Source: a virus (Duplodnaviria > Heunggongvirae > Uroviricota > Caudoviricetes). Taken from it: a DNA stretch of 10,038 nucleotides. A program made the translations under genes and the position numbers. Within the stretch, counting starts at the first letter, position 1; every line of letters begins with the position of its first letter. The notes below the pieces were generated by a model. That model was not told the DNA's origin. It saw only the letters and a list, made by a program, of their open reading frames with translations, and searched no databases. The stretch is from the IMG/VR virus record IMGVR_UViG_2541047698_000009. One strand, written 5' to 3'. Below, piece after piece: positions 1 through 10,038 of this stretch.

Positions 1-372
1 TTCCATTTTGCGACCGGAGGATTTACGGGAACCGGCGGCAAATATGAACCTGCGGGGATTGTTCATCGCGGGGAGTTTGTCTTCACGAAGGAGGCGACCA
101 GCCGGATTGGTGTCGGCAATCTGTACCGCCTGATGCGGGGCTATGCGGAAGGTGGTTATGTCGGCGGTGCCGGAAGTCCGGCGCAGATGCGGCGGGCGGA
201 AGGCATTAATTTTAATCAGAACAATCACGTGGTGATTCAGAACGACGGCCCCAACGGGCGGGCAGGGCCGCAGCTGATGAAAGCGGTGTATGAGATGGCC
301 CGCAAGGGGGCACAGGATGAACTCCGGCTGCAGTTGCGTGATGGCGGTATGTTATCAGGGAGCGGTGGATGA
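1..372 (+). CDS. H: Tail tape measure protein, C-terminal 123 codons (5' end outside window)
   Basis: Frame 1 is open from position 1 to TGA at 370-372. Translation ...GGFTGTGGKYEPAGIVHRGEFVFTKEATSRIGVGNLYRLMRGY...NQNNHVVIQNDG... matches the lambda gpH C-terminus as I recall it. The stop overlaps the next start (ATGA at 369-372), as at the lambda H/M junction. Confidence 0.9.
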   Translation, partial: FHFATGGFTGTGGKYEPAGIVHRGEFVFTKEATSRIGVGNLYRLMRGYAEGGYVGGAGSPAQMRRAEGINFNQNNHVVIQNDGPNGRAGPQLMKAVYEMARKGAQDELRLQLRDGGMLSGSGG

Positions 373-698
373 AAACCTTTCGCTGGAAAGTGAAGCCGGA
401 TATGGAGGTGAACTCGCAGCCATCGGTGCGTGAAGTGCGTTTTGGTTACGGGTACTCACAGCGTATGGCGGCAGGGCTGAATGCTGACCTGAAAACATAC
501 AGGGTGACGCTTTCCGTGACCCGGGAGGAGGCCCGGCATCTGGAAGCGTTCCTGGCAGAGCACGGTGGCTGGAAGGCATTTTTGTGGAAGCCACCCTATG
601 CATACCGGCAGATAAAGGTGACCTGTGCCGGGTGGTCTGCGCGGGTCGGGATGTTGCGCGTTGAGTTCAGCGCGGAGTTTAAGCAGGTGGTGAACTGA
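369..698 (+). CDS. M: Tail tip assembly protein M
   Basis: 109-aa ORF, same length as lambda gpM, beginning MKTFRWKVKPDMEVNSQPS. Start overlaps the H stop (ATGA) and stop overlaps the L start (TGATG at 696-700). Confidence 0.93.
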   Translation: MKTFRWKVKPDMEVNSQPSVREVRFGYGYSQRMAAGLNADLKTYRVTLSVTREEARHLEAFLAEHGGWKAFLWKPPYAYRQIKVTCAGWSARVGMLRVEFSAEFKQVVN

Positions 699-1396
699 TG
701 CAGGATATTCGCGAAGAAAGTCTGAACGAGTCGGTTAAGTCAGAGCAGTCACCGCGGGTGGTACTCTGGGAAATCGACCTGACGGTGCAGGGCGGTGAGC
801 GGTATTTTTTCTGCAATGAGCTGAATGAAAAAGGGGAGCCGGTGACCTGGCAGGGGCGTGAATATCAGGCGTACCCGATTGAGGGGAGTGGCTTTGAGAT
901 GAACGGGAAGGGCAGCAGTGCCAGACCATCGCTGACGGTGTCCAATCTGTTTGGTCTGGTCACCGGGATGGCGGAAGACCTGCAGAGTCTGGTGGGGGCC
1001 ACGGTGGTCCGCCGCCGGGTGTATGCCCGTTTTCTGGATGCGGTGAATTTCGTTGCGGGCAATCCGGAGGCGGACCCGGAGCAGGAGCTGAGTGACCGCT
1101 GGGTGGTGGAGCAGATGTCGCAGCTGACAGCCATGACGGCCTCGTTTGTGCTGGCCACACCGACCGAGACGGACGGGGCGCTGTTTCCCGGTCGTATCAT
1201 GCTGGCGAACACCTGTATGTGGACCTACCGCTCTGATGAGTGTGGTTACACGGGCGGGGCTGTGGCGGATGAGTTCGATAAACCCACCACGGATATCCGT
1301 AAGGACAGATGCAGCAAGTGCATGCGCGGGTGTGAACTGCGCAGGAATGTCGGCAATTTTGGCGGTTTCCTTTCCATTAATAAACTTTCGCAGTAA
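698..1396 (+). CDS. L: Tail tip protein L
   Basis: 232-aa ORF, same length as lambda gpL, beginning MQDIREESLNESVKSEQSPRVVLWEIDLT. The C-terminus carries a cysteine cluster (NTCMW, DECGY, DRCSKCMRGCE) consistent with the Fe-S cluster reported for gpL. Confidence 0.93.
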   Translation: MQDIREESLNESVKSEQSPRVVLWEIDLTVQGGERYFFCNELNEKGEPVTWQGREYQAYPIEGSGFEMNGKGSSARPSLTVSNLFGLVTGMAEDLQSLVGATVVRRRVYARFLDAVNFVAGNPEADPEQELSDRWVVEQMSQLTAMTASFVLATPTETDGALFPGRIMLANTCMWTYRSDECGYTGGAVADEFDKPTTDIRKDRCSKCMRGCELRRNVGNFGGFLSINKLSQ

Positions 1397-1406
1397 ATCC
1401 CGGTTT

Positions 1407-2150
1407 ATGACACAGACTGAATCAGCGATTCTGGCGCATGCCCGGCGGTGTGCGCCTGCGGAGTCGTGCGGCTTCGTGATAAGCACGCCGGAGGGGGAGC
1501 GGTATATCCCTTGTGTGAATATTTCCGCGGAGCCGGAGGCGTATTTTCGTATCGCACCGGAAGACTGGCTGCGGGCAGAGATGCAGGGGGAGATTGTGGC
1601 ACTGGTCCACAGTCATCCCGGTGGGCTGCCCTGGCTGAGCGAGGCTGACCGGCGGCTGCAGATAAAAAGCGCACTGCCCTGGTGGCTGGTCTGCCGGGGT
1701 GACATTCACAAATTCCGCTGTGTGCCACATCTGACGGGACGGCGCTTTGAGCACGGGGTGACGGACTGTTACACGCTGTTCCGGGATGCTTATCATCTGG
1801 CGGGGACTGAAATGCCGGATTTTCATCGCGAGGATGACTGGTGGCGCAACGGCCAGAACCTGTACCTGGACAACCTGGCGGAAAACGGCTTTTGCCGGGT
1901 GTCTCCGTCCTCTGCACAGGCAGGCGATGTGCTGCTGTGCTGCTTTGGTTCATCGGTGCCGAATCATGCCGCCGTTTACTGTGGTGACGGCGAGCTGCTG
2001 CACCATATTCCTGAACAACTGAGTAAACGGGAGAGGTATTCCGAAAAATGGCAACGACGAACGCATTCTGTCTGGCGTCACCGCCACTGGCACGCATCCG
2101 CCTTTACGGGGATTTACAACGATTTGGCCGCCGCCTCAGCCTGTATGTGA
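1407..2150 (+). CDS. K: Tail tip assembly protein K (JAB/MPN + NlpC/P60 domains)
   Basis: ATG at 1407 lies 10 nt after the L stop. The 247-aa product has a JAMM-type motif HSHPGGLPWLSEAD (HxHx7Sx2D) and NlpC/P60-like Cys/His (VTDCYTLF, PNHAAVY). The ORF-track start at 1146 is an in-frame upstream extension inside L and is rejected. The exact start is uncertain; I recall lambda K being annotated shorter, from an internal ATG. Confidence 0.85.
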   Translation: MTQTESAILAHARRCAPAESCGFVISTPEGERYIPCVNISAEPEAYFRIAPEDWLRAEMQGEIVALVHSHPGGLPWLSEADRRLQIKSALPWWLVCRGDIHKFRCVPHLTGRRFEHGVTDCYTLFRDAYHLAGTEMPDFHREDDWWRNGQNLYLDNLAENGFCRVSPSSAQAGDVLLCCFGSSVPNHAAVYCGDGELLHHIPEQLSKRERYSEKWQRRTHSVWRHRHWHASAFTGIYNDLAAASACM

Positions 2151-2728
2151 ACACGGCAGCGGAAGCCATTCGCGCCCTGTCGATGCAGATGCCGGGCTTT
2201 CGCCGTCAGATGAACGAAGGCTGGTACCAGATACGTATTGCCGGTGATGACACGGCACCGGAGGCGGTGTACGCCCGTCTTCACGAACAGCTGGGTGAGG
2301 GAACGGTCATCCACATTGTGCCGCGACTGGCCGGGGCCGGAAAGGGTGGACTGCAGATTGTGCTGGGGGCGGCAGCCATCGTGGGCTCTTTCTTCACGGC
2401 CGGTGCCTCGATGGTGTTATGGGGTACAGCCCTGAGTGCCGGCGGTTTTTCTGCCACCACGATGCTGTTTTCACTGGGGGCCAGCATGATACTGGGCGGT
2501 GTGGCCCAGATGCTGGCCCCGAAGGCAAAAACACCGGATTACCGCGCAACGGATAACGGCAGACAGAACACGTACTTTTCCTCACTGGATAACATGATTG
2601 CCCAGGGGAACCCGATGCCGGTGCCTTACGGGGAAATGCTGGTTGGCTCCCGCCGTATATCCCAGGACATCAGCACCCGTGATGAAGGCGGGGGCGGAAA
2701 GGTCGTGGTTATCGGGCGGCAGGGGTAA
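2048..2728 (+). CDS. I: Tail tip assembly protein I
   Basis: 226-aa ORF beginning MATTNAFCLASPPLARIRLYGDLQRFGRR, with a Gly/Ala-rich hydrophobic C-terminal half as in lambda gpI. It overlaps the 3' end of K by 103 nt in another frame, as K/I do in lambda. Confidence 0.88.
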   Translation: MATTNAFCLASPPLARIRLYGDLQRFGRRLSLYVNTAAEAIRALSMQMPGFRRQMNEGWYQIRIAGDDTAPEAVYARLHEQLGEGTVIHIVPRLAGAGKGGLQIVLGAAAIVGSFFTAGASMVLWGTALSAGGFSATTMLFSLGASMILGGVAQMLAPKAKTPDYRATDNGRQNTYFSSLDNMIAQGNPMPVPYGEMLVGSRRISQDISTRDEGGGGKVVVIGRQG

Positions 2729-2774
2729 AAAGAATAAAAAAATCCCGCAGTGATCGCGGACAGGAACTGCGGGA
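2729..2774 (-). terminator. Intrinsic terminator, minus-strand orientation only
   Basis: Perfect 9-bp stem 2743-2751 (TCCCGCAGT) / 2766-2774 (ACTGCGGGA) with a 14-nt loop. On the minus strand it is followed by UUUUUUUAUUCUUU (complement of 2729-2742). On the + strand there is no U-tract after the stem. Confidence 0.6.
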
Positions 2775-2832
2775 GAGTTACGAAGATTAAGTGTAAGGAA
2801 TTATTCTTATATCACGACAAAAAAATTAACGC
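2736..2832 (-). ncRNA. Candidate small non-coding RNA (moron) between I and J; ends approximate
   Basis: Lies between a near-consensus minus-strand promoter (2839-2866) and the minus-strand terminator (2729-2774). No ATG and no ORF longer than 2-3 codons on that strand within the interval. U-rich 5' part and a CU-rich stretch before the terminator stem. Confidence 0.35.
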
Positions 2833-2838
2833 AGAGAA

Positions 2839-2866
2839 ATTATACGCGCCACAGTCAGTTTGTGAA
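2839..2866 (-). promoter_or_regulatory. Putative sigma70 promoter, reads leftward on minus strand
   Basis: Minus-strand reading: -35 TTCACA (complement of 2861-2866, 5/6 to TTGACA), 16-nt spacer, -10 TATAAT (complement of 2839-2844, 6/6). A/T-rich block upstream (2867-2890). Predicted start near 2832. Confidence 0.4.
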
Positions 2867-2930
2867 AATGTGAAGATATTCAGAATTTTTATGCCATTAC
2901 CGGTTTTAACCAACAGGATTATCGGTGGGC

Positions 2931-2974
2931 ATGAAAGAAAACCCCGGTATCTGCTGATACCGGGGTTTCTCTTT
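2931..2974. terminator. Bidirectional intrinsic-terminator-like hairpin
   Basis: Perfect 13-bp stem 2939-2951 (AAACCCCGGTATC) / 2956-2968 (GATACCGGGGTTT) with 4-nt loop TGCT. Followed by TTTCTCTTT on the + strand and by TTTTCTTTC on the minus strand. Confidence 0.5.
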
Positions 2975-3071
2975 AGCATGGCAGAAATGTGTTTCATGCT
3001 TTTCGGGCGAAGGATATCCGACTTCTGTACGGAATGGCAAGTGGCGGTTAATTTATTCAGGGGAAGGCTGT

Positions 3072-6000
3072 ATGGGAAAAGGTGGCGGTAAGGCACACAC
3101 GCCTCGTGAGGCGAAGGATAATCTCAAATCCACGCAGATGATGAGTGTGATTGATGCGATTGGTGAGGGACCGATAGAAGGTCCGGTGAAGGGACAGCAG
3201 AGTATTCTGGTGAACAAAACCCCGCTGACGGACACGGACGGTAATCCCGTGATACACGGTGTGACTGCGGTCTGGCGTGCCGGGGAGCAGGAGCAGACAC
3301 CACCGGAAGGCTTTGAGTCCTCCGGAGCTGAAACCGGACTGGGCGTGGAAGTGACGAAGGCAAAACCGGTGACGCGCACCATTACGTCCGCGAACATTGA
3401 CCGCCTGCGGGTTACCTTCGGGGTGCAGTCACTGGTGCAGACCACGTCAAAGGGCGACCGTAATCCTTCCTCTGTCCGGATTCTGATTCAGTTACAGCGT
3501 AATGGCCGCTGGGTGACGGAAAAGGATGTCACCATTAACGGCAAGACCACCTCGCAGTTCCTGGCCTCGGTGATTCTGGATAATCTGCCTCCCCGGCCCT
3601 TTAACATCCGGATGGTCAGGGAGACGGCGGACAGCACCACGGACCAGCTGCAGAATAAGACGCTGTGGTCGTCATACACCGAAATCATCGATGTGAAACA
3701 GTGCTACCCGAACACGGCCATTGTGGGGCTGCAGGTGGATGCGGAGCAGTTCGGCGGCCAGCAGATGACGGTGAACTACCATATCCGCGGTCGCATCATC
3801 CAGGTGCCGTCAAACTATGACCCGGAAAAACGCACGTACAGTGGTATCTGGGACGGCAGCCTGAAACCGGCATACAGCAACAACCCGGCCTGGTGTCTGT
3901 GGGACATGCTGACTCACCCGCGCTACGGCATGGGAAAACGTCTGGGGGCGGCGGATGTGGACAAGTGGGCGCTGTATGCCATCGGGCAGTACTGCGACCA
4001 GACGGTCCCGGATGGTTTCGGGGGGACCGAGCCGCGGATGACCTTTAATGCGTACCTGGCACAACAGCGTAAGGCGTGGGACGTTCTCAGTGATTTCTGC
4101 TCTGCGATGCGCTGTATGCCGGTATGGAACGGCCAGACGCTGACGTTCGTTCAGGACCGTCCGTCGGATGTGGTGTGGCCGTACACCAACAGCGATGTGG
4201 TGGTGGATGATAACGGCGTGGGTTTCCGCTACAGCTTCAGTGCCCTGAAGGACCGGCACACGGCAGTGGAGGTGAATTACACCGACCCGCAGAACGGCTG
4301 GCAGACCTCCACGGAACTGGTGGAAGACCCGGAAGCCATACTGCGCTACGGACGCAACCTGCTGAAGATGGACGCGTTCGGCTGTACCAGCCGCGGTCAG
4401 GCCCACCGTGCCGGACTGTGGGTGATAAAGACCGAACTGCTGGAAACGCAGACGGTGGATTTCACGCTCGGGTCTCAGGGGCTGCGGCACACACCCGGTG
4501 ACATCATTGAAATCTGTGATAACGACTATGCCGGGACCCTGACCGGCGGACGTGTCCTGTCCATTGATGCTGCCACCCGCACCCTGACGCTGGACCGTGA
4601 AGTGACACTTCCGGAGACCGGTGCCGCCACGGTGAACCTGATTAACGGCAGTGGTAAGCCGGTGAGTGTGGACATCACCGAACACCCCGCGCCGGACCGG
4701 ATACAGGTCAGTACCCTGCCTGATGGTGTGGAGACATACGGGGTGTGGGGACTCTCCCTGCCGTCACTGCGCCGTCGCCTGTTCCGCTGTGTCTCCGTCC
4801 GGGAAAACACGGACGGCACCTTTGCCATCACGGCGGTGCAGCACGTACCGGAAAAAGAAGCCATTGTGGATAACGGGGCCAGCTTTGAGCCGCAGTCAGG
4901 CAGCCTGAACAGCGTTATCCCACCGGCAGTGCAGCACCTGACGGTGGAGGTGAGTGCAGCTGACGGTCAGTATCTGGCACAGGCGAAATGGGACACGCCG
5001 CGGGTGGTGAAGGGTGTGCGCTTCAGTCTGCGTCTGACCAGCGGAAGCGGAGAAGACAGCCGTCTGGTGAGCACCGCCATCACCGCAGACACGGAGCACC
5101 GTTTCAGTGGTCTGCCGCTGGGGGAATACACCCTGACGGTGCGGGCCATTAACAGCTACGGCCAGCAGGGCGAACCTGCGACCACCACCTTCCGGATTAA
5201 CGCGCCTGCAAAACCCGCCACCATTGAGCTGACGCCGGGGTATTTTCAGATAACGGCGGTACCGGTGCTGGCGGTGTATGACCCGACGGTGCAGTTTGAG
5301 TTCTGGTTTTCGGAAAAACGCATCACGAACACGGCACAGGTGGAAAAATCTGCCCGTTATCTGGGGACCGGCAGTCAGTGGACTGTCCAGGGCGATCGGA
5401 TTAAGCCGGGGATGGATTTCTGGTTTTATGTGCGCAGTGTCAACCTGGTGGGCAAGTCTGCATTTGTGGAAGCCAGCGGGCAGGCCAGCAATGATGCAAA
5501 AGGGTATCTGGAATTTTTCCGTGGTCTGATAGATGAGACGCTTCTGGGCCAGGCACTGAAAGAGCGCATTGATGCTTCAGCGCTGCGTACGGAGGTCACG
5601 CAACTGGAAGAAGACATCCGTCAGCGGATGGACACGGATATCGCAGAAGTGACCCGGAAAATCGGGGAGGCGGAAAACAGCCTCACGCAGCTGGTTGCGA
5701 AAAAGAATGAGGACCAGACACTGGCCATCGCGCAGGTGAGCCAGAAAGTGGACCGGGTGAGCAGTGAAATCTCACAGACTGTCAGCCAGGGGCAGTCAGA
5801 AAATGCCCGACAGATAGCACAGGTCCGCCAGTACGTGGATAAAAAAGGGAGTGAAATTACCTCGACCACGGATAAAAAACTGGGTGACCAGGCCGTGACC
5901 ATACAGCAAATCCAGCGGGTTCAGTCAGACACGCGCAATGAGCTGAATGCCATGTATATGCTGAAGGTGCAGAAAACAAAAAACGGTATTCCCTATGTGG

Positions 6001-6764
6001 CCGGGATTGGTGCGGGGATTGAGGATGTTGATGGTCAGACGCTGAGCAGTATTCTGCTGCAGGCGGACCGTATCGCGATGATTACCCCGGAGAATGGCAA
6101 CACCACGCCGCTGTTTGTGGCGCAGGGGAATCAGCTGTTCATGAACGACGTGTTCCTGAAGCGACTGTTTGCGGTGAGCATCACGTCATCCGGCAATCCT
6201 CCTACGTTTTCCCTGACGCCGGATGGCAGGCTGGCAGCCCGCAATGCGGATATCAGTGGAGCCATCACGGCGAATACCGGCACGCTCAATAATGTCACCA
6301 TTAACGAGAACTGTGTCATCAGAGGGAAACTGTCTGCAAACCAGATTGAAGGCGATCTCGTTAAAACAGTGGGTAAGGCTTTCCCCCGTGACTCCCGTGC
6401 ACCGGAGAGGTGGCCATCAGGGACCATTACCGTCAGGGTTTATGACGATCAGCCGTTTGACCGGCAAATTGTTATTCCGGCGGTGGCATTCAGCGGTGCC
6501 AGACATGAGCGGGAGAATAACGATATTTATTCGTCATGCCGCCTGATAGTACGGAAAAACGGTGCTGAAATTTATAACCGTACCGCGCTGGATAATACGC
6601 TGGTTTACAGTGGTGTTATTGATATGCCTGCTGGTCGCGGCCACATGACGCTGGAGTTTTCTGTATCAGCATGGTGGGTAAATGGCTGGTATCCCACAGC
6701 AAGTATCAGCGATTTGCTGGTTGTTGTGATGAAGAAAGCCACTGCAGGCATCACGATTAGCTGA
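3072..6764 (+). CDS. J: Host specificity protein J (central tail fibre / tail tip)
   Basis: 1230-aa ORF; N-terminus [39 protein letters not shown] and long internal stretches ([95 protein letters not shown]) match lambda gpJ as I recall it. RBS-like GGGGAAGG upstream of the ATG. Confidence 0.95.
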
Positions 6765-6783
6765 ATTTTATAACCCCAATACG

Positions 6784-6807
6784 GGCGCCAGAAATGGCGC
6801 CTTTTTT
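6784..6807 (+). terminator. Intrinsic terminator after J
   Basis: GC stem GGCGCC (6784-6789) / GGCGCC (6796-6801), 6-nt loop AGAAAT, followed by TTTTTT (6802-6807). Confidence 0.6.
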
Positions 6808-6831
6808 ATTGCAGAAAAGCGAGAGGTAATT

Positions 6832-7431
6832 ATGCGTAAATTATGTGCTGTTATTCTGTCCGCAGTAGTCTGGCTGGTTGCCGCTGGTACACCAGCGAGC
6901 GCAGCAGAGCATCAGTCCACACTAAGCGCCGGGTATCTTCAGACCCACACTGATATGCCAGGCAGCGATAATCTGAACGGGATTAACGTGAAATACCGTT
7001 ATGAGTTTACGGACGCGCTGGGGCTGATTACGTCCTTCAGTTATGCCAATGCTGAGGATGAGCAAAAAACGCACTACAGCGATACCCGCTGGCATGAAGA
7101 TTCCGTGCGTAACCGCTGGTTCAGCGTGATGGCGGGGCCATCTGTACGCGTGAATGAATGGTTCAGTGCTTATGCGATGGCAGGTGTGGCTTACAGCCGT
7201 GTGTCGACGTTCTCCGGGGATTATCTCCGCGTAACTGACAACAAGGGGAAAACGCACGATGTGCTGACCGGAAGTGATGACGATCGCCACAGCAACACGT
7301 CTCTGGCGTGGGGAGCTGGCGTGCAGTTTAACCCGACCGAATCCGTGACCATTGATATTGCTTATGAAGGTTCCGGTAGTGGCGACTGGCGAACGGATGC
7401 ATTTATTGTTGGTATCGGATACCGTTTCTGA
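6832..7431 (+). CDS. lom: Lom-like outer membrane beta-barrel protein (Ail/Lom/PagC family)
   Basis: 199-aa ORF with a signal peptide (MRKLCAVILSAVVWLVAAGTPASA then AEHQ). Conserved blocks GINVKYRYE, SVMAGP, SAYAMAGVA, DIAYEGSGSGDWRTD and terminal GIGYRF match lambda Lom as I recall it. RBS GAGAGG 6 nt upstream; sits directly after J as in lambda. Confidence 0.93.
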   Translation: MRKLCAVILSAVVWLVAAGTPASAAEHQSTLSAGYLQTHTDMPGSDNLNGINVKYRYEFTDALGLITSFSYANAEDEQKTHYSDTRWHEDSVRNRWFSVMAGPSVRVNEWFSAYAMAGVAYSRVSTFSGDYLRVTDNKGKTHDVLTGSDDDRHSNTSLAWGAGVQFNPTESVTIDIAYEGSGSGDWRTDAFIVGIGYRF

Positions 7432-7536
7432 CAACAGACGCCGATTTATCTTCTGTAAATATTGTTATGATACGCAGGTTCATCCGCCTTATGGGGTGAA
7501 CTGCGTTTGAGGAAACGTAAAGTTACACTGTCCTGA

Positions 7537-7568
7537 AGCCCGTGGCGTCACTGCTGCGGGCTTTTTTT
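7537..7568 (+). terminator. Intrinsic terminator after lom
   Basis: Stem AGCCCG (7537-7542) / CGGGCT (7556-7561) with a 13-nt loop, followed by TTTTTTT (7562-7568). Confidence 0.55.
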
Positions 7569-7582
7569 ATTGGTGGAAAAGT

Positions 7583-9055
7583 ATGACAGTAAAAATTTCT
7601 GGCGTGCTTAAAGATGGCACAGGAAAACCAGTACAGAACTGCACCATTGTGCTGAAGGCCAGACGGACCAGCAGCACGGTGGTGGTGAACACGGTGGCCT
7701 CTGAAAATCCGGATGAAGCCGGGCGTTACAGCATGGATGTTGAGTATGGCCAGTACAGCGTCACCCTGCTGGTTGAAGATTTTCCGCCTTCACATGCCGG
7801 GACCATTACCGTCTATGAAGGTTCCAGACCAGGTACGCTGAATGATTTTCTCGGCGCCATGACGGAGGATGATGTTCGTCCGGAGGCACTGCGCCGTTTT
7901 GAGCTGATGGTGAATGAAGTGGCACGTCATGCCGGAGCGTCATCACAGAGTGCAGCGGCGGCAAAGAAATCCGAAACGGCAGCAGCCTCATCGAAGAATG
8001 CGGCGAAAACCTCAGAAACGAATGCAGCTAACAGCGCACAGGCGGCAGCGGCCTCGCAGACTGCATCGGCAAACTCCGCGACAGCAGCCAAAAAATCAGA
8101 AACCAGCGCGAAAAATAGCGAGACAGCCACAAAGGCCAGCGAAAAAAACGCAAAATCCAGCCAGACGGCAGCGAAAACCAGTGAGACGAATGCCAAAGAC
8201 AGTGAAGCCAACGCAAAGGTGAGCGAAACAGCGGCGGCGAACTCGGCGAAAGCATCGGCAGCAAGCCAGACGGCAGCAAAAGCAAGTGAAGATGCTGCCA
8301 GAGAATACGCAAACCAGACAGCAGAGCCGTACAGATATGTTTTACAGCCGCTGCCGGATGTGTGGATACCCTTTAATGATTCGCTGGATATGATTACGGG
8401 CTATTCTCCGGGTTATAAAAAAGTGAAGATTGGTGATAATGTGGTTCAGGTTGCCAGTGATAAACAGGTTAATTTCAGTCGCGCATCAACGGCAACATAT
8501 ATCAACAAATCTGGCGAACTGAAAACGGCGGAAATTAATGAGCCACGATTTGAGTGTGATGGCCTGCTTATTGAGGGGCAAAGAACGAACTTCTTCCCGA
8601 ACAGTACAGACCCTTCGAAGTGGAATAAGTCAACTTCACTGGACGTTACAGAAACAGGCACAGATAGTTTCGGGTTTAATTATGGCCGGTTTGTCGTACA
8701 GGATTCGATTGTTGGTACAAGTAAAGCGCATACCATTATCGGACTGTATTCGAGTGCCGGAGGGGTTGATACTTCAGGGGACGAAAAGCATGTAACTATA
8801 TCCTGTCGGGTAAAAAGTGAAGTTGATAATATCGCCGTTCGTATTTTATTTGAACATTATGATGGGGAGGTAAGGACATCAATAGGAGCAGCAAACCTGA
8901 ACCTTACCACCCGCATAATTAGCAAGACAGGTCAGACAAGCCGTGTTACAGCAAGGTCTGTTAAGGATGATGCAACTGGCTGGATATTTTTTGAGGCTAC
9001 ATTAAAAGCAGATACAACAGAAAATACGGTTGGTGGTTTTGTCCAGTATTCGTAA
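7583..9055 (+). CDS. stf: Side tail fibre protein (Stf-like), probably 3'-truncated by IS insertion
   Basis: N-terminus MTVKISGVLKDGTGKPVQNCTIVLKARRTSSTVVVNTVASENPDEAGRYSMDVEYGQYSV matches lambda Stf (orf-401) as I recall it, followed by Ala/Ser/Thr/Lys-rich degenerate repeats typical of fibre shafts. RBS GGTGGA upstream. The stop TAA (9053-9055) lies inside the sequence GTAAGCG that I take to be the IS66-family terminus. Confidence 0.8.
   Translation: MTVKISGVLKDGTGKPVQNCTIVLKARRTSSTVVVNTVASENPDEAGRYSMDVEYGQYSVTLLVEDFPPSHAGTITVYEGSRPGTLNDFLGAMTEDDVRPEALRRFELMVNEVARHAGASSQSAAAAKKSETAAASSKNAAKTSETNAANSAQAAAASQTASANSATAAKKSETSAKNSETATKASEKNAKSSQTAAKTSETNAKDSEANAKVSETAAANSAKASAASQTAAKASEDAAREYANQTAEPYRYVLQPLPDVWIPFNDSLDMITGYSPGYKKVKIGDNVVQVASDKQVNFSRASTATYINKSGELKTAEINEPRFECDGLLIEGQRTNFFPNSTDPSKWNKSTSLDVTETGTDSFGFNYGRFVVQDSIVGTSKAHTIIGLYSSAGGVDTSGDEKHVTISCRVKSEVDNIAVRILFEHYDGEVRTSIGAANLNLTTRIISKTGQTSRVTARSVKDDATGWIFFEATLKADTTENTVGGFVQYS
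7952..8300 (+). repeat. Degenerate tandem repeats encoding the Ala/Ser/Thr/Lys-rich Stf shaft
   Basis: Recurring nucleotide units of the form AAA(A/T)C(C/A)GA(A/G)AC(G/C)...GCAGC, giving peptide repeats AAKKSETAAASS / AAKTSETNAANS / AAKKSETSAKNS / AAKTSETNAKDS / AKVSETAAANS. They generate the spurious overlapping ORFs 7914-8222 (+) and 7927-8211 (-). Confidence 0.6.
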
Positions 9056-9136
9056 GCGTAAAGCCAATGCCGTCTGTAACACCTGCTCCTTGCAGACTAA
9101 ATTAGAGCTCCTTCTAAATTAGACGGAGTTCTATTG

Positions 9137-9571
9137 ATGGATAAACCTACAGACTGGCGCTCCGGAACCCGCCGGATATTTTCTAATGAATTTAAACTTC
9201 ATATGGTTGAACTGGCTTCGAAACCAAATGCCAATGTTGCACAACTGGCCCGGGAACATGGCGTTGATAACAACCTGATTTTTAAATGGCTACGCCTCTG
9301 GCAAAGAGAAGGACGTATTTCTCGTAGAATGCCTCCAACTATTGTAGGCCCTACAGTATCACAATCTTTTCCGGCCTCTCCGACTCTGGTTCCAGTGGAA
9401 CTTATCGACACCCCGCGCTGTGCTACAGATGCTCCTGCTCCGGAGGCATTATCAGTTGCTTGTGCAGCTTCCTGCCATGTGGAATTCCATTACGGTAAAA
9501 TGATGCTGGAAAATCCTTCACCAGAGCTGCTCACGGTGTTGATCCGTGAGCTGACCGGGAGGGGACGATGA
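9137..9571 (+). CDS. tnpA: IS66-family accessory protein (orf1/TnpA-like, HTH)
   Basis: 144-aa ORF from ATG 9137 (the ORF-track start at 9134 is a TTG one codon upstream); RBS GGAG at 9125-9128. Sequence MDKPTDWRSGTRRIFSNEFKLHMVELASKPNANVAQLAREHGVDNNLIFKWLRLW is typical of IS66 orf1 proteins. Confidence 0.82.
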   Translation: MDKPTDWRSGTRRIFSNEFKLHMVELASKPNANVAQLAREHGVDNNLIFKWLRLWQREGRISRRMPPTIVGPTVSQSFPASPTLVPVELIDTPRCATDAPAPEALSVACAASCHVEFHYGKMMLENPSPELLTVLIRELTGRGR

Positions 9572-9918
9572 TTTCACTCCCATCAGGTACCCGTATCTGG
9601 CTCGTTGCCGGCGTTACTGATATGCGTAAATCCTTCAACGGTCTGGGGGAGCAGATACAGCATGTGCTGGATGATAACCCCTTCTCCGGTCACCTGTTTA
9701 TCTTCCGTGGCCGACGGGGAGACACGATTAAAATCCTGTGGGCTGATGCTGATGGTCTGTGCCTGTTCACCAAACGCCTTGAGGAAGGTCAGTTTATCTG
9801 GCCTGCGGTGCGTGACGGTAAGATATCCATTACCCGCTCGCAACTGGCAATGCTCCTCGATAAGCTGGACTGGCGTCAGCCAAAAACATCCCGCCTTAAC
9901 GCACTGACAATGTTGTAA
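9568..9918 (+). CDS. tnpB: IS66-family accessory protein TnpB (orf2)
   Basis: 116-aa ORF overlapping orf1 by ATGA. Sequence MISLPSGTRIWLVAGVTDMRKSFNGLGEQIQ...LFIFRGRRGDTIKILWADADGLCLFTKRLEEGQFIWP is characteristic of IS66 TnpB. Confidence 0.85.
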   Translation: MISLPSGTRIWLVAGVTDMRKSFNGLGEQIQHVLDDNPFSGHLFIFRGRRGDTIKILWADADGLCLFTKRLEEGQFIWPAVRDGKISITRSQLAMLLDKLDWRQPKTSRLNALTML

Positions 9919-9948
9919 AAAACTCCTGACCGCATTATAAAAACGGCC

Positions 9949-10038
9949 ATGAGTCAGAAATACCTCATTCGCATCGCTGAGCTGGAAAGGCTGCTCTCTG
10001 AGCAGGCTGAAGCCCTCCGTCAGAAAGACCAGCAACTG
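9949..10038 (+). CDS. tnpC: IS66-family transposase (orf3/TnpC), N-terminal 30 codons only
   Basis: ATG at 9949, 30 nt after the TnpB stop. MSQKYLIRIAELERLLSEQAEALRQKDQQL is the leucine-zipper-like N-terminus typical of IS66 transposases. Open to the window end. Confidence 0.7.
   Translation, partial: MSQKYLIRIAELERLLSEQAEALRQKDQQL

Follow-up and report, generated by a model that had tools for sequence, protein, structure and literature searches.

The tip attachment protein J encoded in the window, a stretch of 10,038 nucleotides from a lambda-like prophage, ends in an Ig-like receptor-binding domain (RBD) that is strongly diverged from that of lambda. The explanation that accounts best for the data, and that we consider probable, is that of a recombinationally exchanged RBD allele, most likely binding OmpC rather than LamB. 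The RBD would represent a homologous, allelic cassette of the '1A2 / VT1-Sakai (Sp15)' class, joined by recombination to a lambda-like J body.

Gene J and Its Genomic Context

The window covers the tail-tip end of the prophage with the genes M (369-698), L (698-1396), K, I (2048-2728), J, lom and stf (7583-9055), and the synteny M-L-K-I-J-lom-stf matches that of lambda, CFT073, phage 21 and VT1-Sakai. A CFT073 prophage adjoining potB shares 98% DNA identity with window positions 1-9051. J as a whole and its parts upstream of the RBD are as follows:

3072-6764 (+): gene J, tip attachment protein or central tail fibre, an intact reading frame of 1230 aa (open reading frame list and translation)
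5583-5885 (+): expansion of about 100 aa compared to lambda, aa ~838-938, at the position of the lambda alpha-helical shaft (MAFFT)
J aa 944-1071: Pfam domain Phage_Tail_Tip
5961-6320 (+): central straight fibre and neck, lambda-like with 55-77% aa identity, ending in NADISG...NENC (sliding identity)

The full Pfam architecture, consisting of FNIII-A_GpJ, Phage-tail_3, Ig_J, Ig_J_second, Phage_Tail_Tip and Ig_GpJ_C, was identified in J with six of six domains above the curated cut-offs. J is collinear with lambda J (NC_001416), with 58% identity end to end (BLASTP). By its domain architecture, collinearity and synteny, J is a lambda-type tip attachment protein.

The expansion at 5583-5885 is located between FNIII-2 and the straight fibre, where the domain names for the lambda shaft and fibre regions are those of PMC11101478, and has a high content of Q, E, K, S and T. 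In the MAFFT alignment, lambda is gapped opposite the expansion and phage 21 has a shorter gap there, with no true BLASTP alignment in this part. The long form is common to PhiR49_2 and CFT073, phage 21 has an intermediate length, and nothing matching is present in VT1-Sakai. No tandem DNA repeat was identified that accounts for the expansion. Given the additional ~100 aa, the central fibre would be longer than that of lambda.

The spacer between I and J (2729-3071) comprises 343 bp with a GC content of 0.42-0.46; the corresponding spacers of lambda and VT1-Sakai measure 60 bp and 240 bp, respectively. An open reading frame in the window spacer, at 2750-3091 with a GTG start and 113 codons, overlaps the start of J and has no Pfam or PHROG match. 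For phi330, a hypothetical protein is annotated at the equivalent position.

Divergence and Composition of the J C-Terminus

Over the last 150 aa, J and lambda J share 63 of 148 aligned residues (43% identity, BLASTP). In sliding windows of 40 aa, the identity to lambda J is mostly 60-95% over aa 1-800 (about 75-80%), and 30-52% over aa 1079-1230. The first-pass annotation had described the last ~125 codons of J as diverged from lambda with scattered anchors, which was borne out by the alignment: FPR, WPSGT, FDRQIV and DMPAGRG are all conserved between both proteins. In the structural model described below, these anchors would correspond to framework and top-loop elements of the RBD.

The same annotation had noted that the 3' end of J is more AT-rich than the rest of the gene. 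Indeed, the GC content of 6380-6764 is 0.509, compared to 0.581 in the rest of J (chi-square p = 0.008). A sliding-window analysis revealed that GC is not uniform across J; 3.4% of all 385-nt windows of the gene are as low as 6380-6764, the minimum window begins at 6288, and a second, smaller dip is present at ~5470-5960. The shift is also visible at third codon positions, with a GC3 of 0.516 for 6380-6764 and 0.70 for the rest of J. A single GC3 change-point was placed by maximum likelihood at codon 1083 (nt 6321), with 0.705 before and 0.503 after it, and a likelihood ratio as high as the observed one did not occur in 300 permutations. The divergent, low-GC C-terminus of J is thus confirmed as real and non-random.

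On the DNA level, the last blastn match to lambda before the RBD extends from 6069 to 6314 with 73.8% identity; the similarity stops at 6314 and resumes only at 7304, inside lom. The block without lambda DNA similarity, 6315-7303, therefore takes in most of lom (its 5' three-quarters). The last motif shared with lambda, NADISG, lies at ~6246-6260, and the Pfam RBD begins at nt 6369. This gives the following boundary:

6315-6321 (+): module boundary, defined by the end of lambda DNA similarity and the GC3 change-point

The diverged region had originally been given as 6380-6764. The peptide quoted for it is found there, but the diverged block starts ~60-125 nt further upstream.

Low GC was considered as proof of a recent foreign origin and rejected. 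In the last 385 nt of J, GC is 0.504 in VT1-Sakai and 0.475 in phage 21, with a smaller drop in lambda (0.551), while the first 2.5 kb of J have a GC of 0.58-0.60 in each of these genes. The downstream genes of the window are equally GC-low, with 0.53 for lom and 0.49 for stf. Since the drop is common to the RBD classes of J and to the downstream genes, it provides no evidence of a recent swap in this phage, and it indicates where the GC-rich structural arm generally ends. When AT-richness and divergence had been taken together as pointers to a swap, the compositional shift itself was correctly recognized, but the argument from GC is weak, the same shift being present in VT1-Sakai and phage 21.

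No Rfam match was found in the window, and promoter-like sites in the region occur at chance level only. Two open reading frames in other frames, 6131-6427 (minus) and 6223-6546 (plus), lie inside the strongly conserved J reading frame.

The Receptor-Binding Domain and Its Predicted Loops

The domain and the loops predicted for it are as follows:

6369-6761 (+), aa 1100-1230: Ig-like receptor-binding domain, 1A2 / VT1-Sakai class (Pfam PF12421 Ig_GpJ_C)
6378-6419 (+), aa 1103-1116: L1, predicted receptor-facing loop (secondary structure of the model, strand alternation, alignments)
6501-6524 (+), aa 1144-1151: L2, predicted receptor-facing hairpin RHERENND (strand alternation, alignments)
6585-6599 (+), aa 1172-1176: L3, putative receptor-facing loop ALDNT (strand alternation in the AlphaFold2 model)
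6675-6701 (+), aa 1202-1210: L4, predicted receptor-facing loop WVNGWYPTA (strand alternation, alignments)

PF12421 Ig_GpJ_C, described as 'C-terminal receptor binding domain', was matched with 130.8 bits compared to a cut-off of 26.2, over profile positions 1-135 of 135. In a phmmer search of the PDB, the best matches were A8 gpJ (9wca/9wcb, E = 1e-76) and lambda gpJ (8xcj, E = 4e-56; 8xck and 8iyk, E about 1e-55). An AlphaFold2 monomer model of J residues 1031-1230, built on 21 homologues, predicted an eight-stranded beta-sandwich with a pLDDT of roughly 85-97 over most of the RBD and a dip to 78 around L4. The top four Foldseek matches of the model were 9wca (closed A8 gpJ), 8xcj (lambda gpJ-LamB), 9wcb (A8 gpJ with EDL933 OmpC) and 8xck, with E about 1e-20. 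Because the Pfam domain and the fold are the same as those of lambda, replacement by a non-homologous RBD was ruled out.

The orientation of the loops, with L1-L4 at the distal side, was deduced from strand alternation in the model, not from coordinates. The predicted positions agree with the AlphaFold3 model of phi330 with OmpC (PMC12502783) and with those of the four lambda bottom loops (PMC11101478). In phi330, the loop T918-Y921, equivalent to L1, was described as short, the hairpin E953-S962, equivalent to L2, was modelled pointing into the OmpC barrel, and the hairpin A1015-P1020, equivalent to L4, was modelled touching the OmpC rim (PMC12502783). L1 of the window has a lambda-like length and is 4 aa longer than in A8, phi330 and phage 21, whereas the L2 hairpin is 5 aa shorter than in A8/phi330. 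Of the neck residues, 63% are identical to lambda, and the value falls to 48% for the framework and 25% for predicted L1-L4, so that the divergence from lambda is concentrated in the loops that are predicted to be distal.

Relatives and Class of the Receptor-Binding Domain

For comparison with other J proteins, a C-terminal module of 172 aa was used, spanning aa 1059-1230 from the ADISG motif. It is 100% identical to J of the CFT073 potB prophage, 97% to phage PhiR49_2 and 91% to VT1-Sakai (Sp15) J with zero gaps (94%, or 123/131, in the Ig domain alone). The identity is 68% to the LamB user phage 21, 65% to the OmpC binder A8 and 47% to the LamB user lambda. For the OmpC binder gpJ '1A2', 89% identity with zero gaps was obtained, with a sequence that had been taken from the supplementary PDF accompanying Brödel et al. 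and was OCR-damaged, eight codons being ambiguous and a few more damaged. Owing to the OCR indels and a DNA identity of only 64% between 1A2 and the window, where nearly every difference falls on a third codon position, the 1A2 protein was rebuilt codon by codon on the window frame. Where 1A2 could be read, 99% of its residues agree with VT1-Sakai J.

Fifteen substitutions distinguish the module from VT1-Sakai/1A2, seven in the neck (aa 1064-1084) and eight in the Ig domain. Six of these eight are located in or beside L2 (R1144K, R1147K, N1149H, N1150T) and L4 (W1202L, G1205N), while L1 and L3 are identical to those of 1A2. By part, the identity to VT1-Sakai is 83% in the predicted loops, 98% in the framework and 82% in the neck. 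The differing positions in L2 and L4 are the most variable ones among close database homologues.

Near-identity, the lack of indels and equal loop lengths place the RBD in the 1A2 / VT1-Sakai class. With 43-47% identity overall, 25% identity in the predicted loops and no blastn similarity after 6314, it falls by sequence outside the lambda-type, LamB-binding class. It likewise falls outside the A8 / phi330 class, in which the loop architecture differs, with a short L1 and a long L2.

Of 5426 complete E. coli genomes, 3420 gave a match of at least 80% identity in a megablast search with 6250-6764, and a match of 99% or more was obtained for 191 genome records. The RBD class is also found in many long-tailed Stx1a and Stx2a phages. 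The window allele is associated with extraintestinal pathogenic E. coli (ExPEC; CFT073, IAI39 and others), and 1A2 is STEC-derived. The exact allele is not new, since CFT073 and many other genomes already carry it under the annotation gpJ. In the literature searched, no paper was found on the PhiR49_2 / ECOR13 phages, with their 97% identical RBD, or on the A8 gpJ-OmpC structure.

J of VT1-Sakai (AP000400, 981-4453) is annotated as two overlapping truncated coding sequences ('truncated protein by a mutation'). By this annotation, the O157 Sakai source prophage of the RBD class is defective in J.

Modularity and Recombination Joints

J of PhiR49_2 is 97-100% identical to the window from ~residue 700 on (~500 aa), and its N-terminal ~700 aa show only lambda-like identity. 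By blastn, the DNA of VT1-Sakai matches 3073-5519 at 90% and 6054-7421 at 88%, with nothing matching 5520-6053. Among database proteins, P0041 and P0066 combine a window-type neck with a phage-21-type RBD, and P0009, P0031 and P0033 have a swap of L4 only or of the second half of the RBD. These mosaics indicate recombination at more than one joint in J. The view that the C-terminus is a swapped specificity module, put forward in the first-pass annotation, is supported by the Ig_GpJ_C domain at aa 1100-1230 and by the mosaic relatives PhiR49_2, VT1-Sakai, P0041 and P0066. Crossover would have taken place at conserved flanks, with NADISG...NENC upstream and the C-terminal end of J together with lom downstream. 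Both flanks, NADISG... and the conserved stretch downstream, are nearly invariant and are plausible crossover sites.

Genes Downstream of J

The following features were identified between J and stf:

6783-6812 (+): terminator-like hairpin with T-run between J and lom (scan: 8-bp stem, 6 GC pairs)
6832-7431 (+): lom, Ail/Lom outer-membrane protein (Pfam Ail_Lom, E = 5e-128)

The hairpin, a strong one, consists of GGGCGCC-AGAA-ATGGCGCC, followed by the tail TTTTTATT, and the annotation of phage 21 has a terminator at this position. With a terminator-like hairpin between J and lom, lom may be expressed apart from the late tail operon. Lom of the window shares 43% aa identity with lambda Lom. The pair of J RBD and lom shares 88% DNA identity with VT1-Sakai, and both may tend to be exchanged together.

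The similarity to CFT073 ends at 9051, inside stf, which encodes 490 aa in the window compared to 687 aa in CFT073. Two transposase open reading frames follow in the remainder of the window (9052-10038), at 9134-9571 and 9568-9918, which match PHROG transposase families with E = 1e-51 and 2e-67. Thus, stf appears to be truncated by an insertion sequence. With a truncated stf, J would be the sole adsorption device, as in lambda PaPa.

The Receptor of the Window J

The receptors of several J proteins have been determined experimentally. Brödel et al. (Nature 2024) replaced the C-terminus of lambda gpJ from residue 964 with natural variants (PMC11338833). For the A8 and 1A2 chimeras, delivery to MG1655 lamB ompC deletion strains was obtained only when OmpC was supplied; A8 accepts the OmpC proteins of MG1655 and EDL933, whereas 1A2 accepts OmpC from EDL933, not from MG1655. 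With A8, 1A2 or both, delivery was efficient to 21 of 23 OmpC variants, and 1A2 is active on the majority of these 23 (PMC11338833). In a follow-up preprint, 1A2 was used as an OmpC binder against O157 (10.1101/2025.02.28.640725). The RBD of phi330 is 99% identical to that of A8, and phi330 was shown not to plate on hosts lacking ompC unless the gene was restored by complementation (PMC12502783). The native receptor of phage 21 is LamB; OmpC is gained in addition through a single J substitution immediately ahead of the RBD, I1025T, and OmpF through additional changes (PMC11336670). A preprint on genome-based prediction of phage receptors treats GpJ of the Drexlerviridae type, with the lambda RBD explicitly excluded (10.64898/2026.04.02.716166).

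The position equivalent to the I1025T site, aa 1096 of the window J (nt ~6357-6359), is Leu (GDLVKTVG) in the window and in the 1A2/VT1-Sakai class, and Ile in lambda, phage 21 and A8.

When the C-terminus was aligned to J proteins of known receptor, the nearest tested relative was 1A2, and high identity to lambda, which would have spoken against a swapped module, was not found (47%). Since 1A2 binds OmpC, OmpC is the most likely receptor of the window RBD. The suggestion in the first-pass annotation that the receptor is probably one other than LamB is consistent with the similarity of the module to VT1-Sakai J and to the OmpC-using 1A2. By analogy to lambda and A8 gpJ, the four distal-face loops (L1-L4) of each protomer would insert into a trimeric outer-membrane porin. 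Binding of the porin would then open the RBD trimer, and by this the opening of the tail tip would be triggered. In lambda, L1-L4 are the four bottom loops of an Ig-like domain and insert into the LamB trimer; the RBD bottoms spread, the tops narrow, the straight fibre twists, the helical shaft flips and the tail tip opens (PMC11101478). For the window J, we infer OmpC as receptor, the assignment of the loops to top or bottom and the trigger mechanism alike.

Receptor choice is labile in this J family. Phage 21 is 68% identical to the window and 83% to the OmpC binder A8, and uses LamB. In the module, phage 21 is only 53% identical to lambda and is nevertheless a LamB user, so that divergence alone is no proof of a receptor change. 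The window RBD could accordingly still use LamB, and would then have diverged by allelic drift or in an arms race over an unchanged receptor; fold and framework are common to all classes. However, 1A2 is a much closer relative (89%; 91-94% through VT1-Sakai) that works without LamB and needs OmpC, and the lengths of L1 and L2 in the window match 1A2, not phage 21. We regard continued use of LamB as distinctly improbable. Still less credit is given to the idea that the region is a decaying remnant without current function in a defective prophage. It would fit with the cut of the downstream stf by an insertion sequence at about 9051 and with the J of VT1-Sakai, itself split by mutation. Against this, J is an intact open reading frame of 1230 codons, its module is identical to that of CFT073 and present in 191 genome records at 99% or more DNA match, and lambda PaPa is fully infective without side fibres (PMC12617516).

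A further qualification concerns the six differences in or beside the predicted contact loops L2 and L4, which count against a straight transfer of the receptor of 1A2. By these substitutions, the window RBD might recognize OmpC with an allele spectrum unlike that of 1A2, or might bind a different general porin, for example OmpF. In favour of this, the substitutions are gathered in predicted contact loops, which are also the most variable ones among close homologues, 1A2 itself discriminates between OmpC alleles (EDL933 yes, MG1655 no), and few steps take phage 21 and lambda to OmpF or OmpC. However, L1 and L3 are identical to those of 1A2 and the framework is 98% identical, and we consider this alternative unlikely as a separate explanation. 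It refines the reading of the RBD as an exchanged, OmpC-binding allele and does not contradict it. A shifted preference for OmpC alleles would be the most likely consequence of the L2 and L4 substitutions compared to 1A2. That the six substitutions retarget the ExPEC allele to a different set of OmpC alleles or to another porin is a minor but appreciable possibility.

Significance

The C-terminus of J is the textbook host-range cassette of lambdoid phages, and its class has already been used experimentally as an OmpC binder. With a well-known kind of cassette and the exact allele present in annotated genomes, the region is an already known, ordinary feature. Among the J RBD variants carried by E. 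coli prophages, the allele ranks with the most frequent. Since it is common and differs from 1A2 mainly in the predicted loops, it is a sensible candidate to widen the coverage of OmpC alleles by lambda-based particles. If the retargeting by L2 and L4 holds true, the allele would be a ready-made RBD, already validated in nature, with which to equip vectors for delivery to extraintestinal pathogenic E. coli. The region further illustrates clearly that a change of receptor cannot be predicted from divergence from lambda J by itself, as phage 21 keeps LamB.

Comparison to Known J Proteins

The RBD of lambda gpJ in complex with LamB (8XCJ/8XCK; PMC11101478) has the same Pfam domain, Ig-like fold, position at the tip of a trimeric fibre and framework motifs as the window RBD, and L1 and L2 have the same lengths. 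It differs in the predicted contact loops, which are 25% identical, and binds LamB.

1A2 (PMC11338833) is in essence the J C-terminus of VT1-Sakai / Sp15 (AP000400). The window RBD is of the same class and has the same swap point (lambda residue 964, NADISG). Between these two relatives, the use of OmpC has been demonstrated for 1A2 only.

Phage 21 J (OL657228; PMC11336670) has the same architecture as the window J, including an expansion of the helical shaft of intermediate length. It differs from the window by its native receptor LamB, by A8-like loops and by Ile at position 1025, where the window has Leu.

The RBD of A8 / phi330 (9WCA/9WCB; PMC11338833, PMC12502783), for which a complex with OmpC has been solved, is the best Foldseek and phmmer match to the window RBD, with which it shares 65-66% identity. 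It belongs to another class with a different L4 sequence, and A8 accepts the OmpC of K-12, whereas 1A2 does not. Its C-terminal 20 residues are nearly identical to those of the window.
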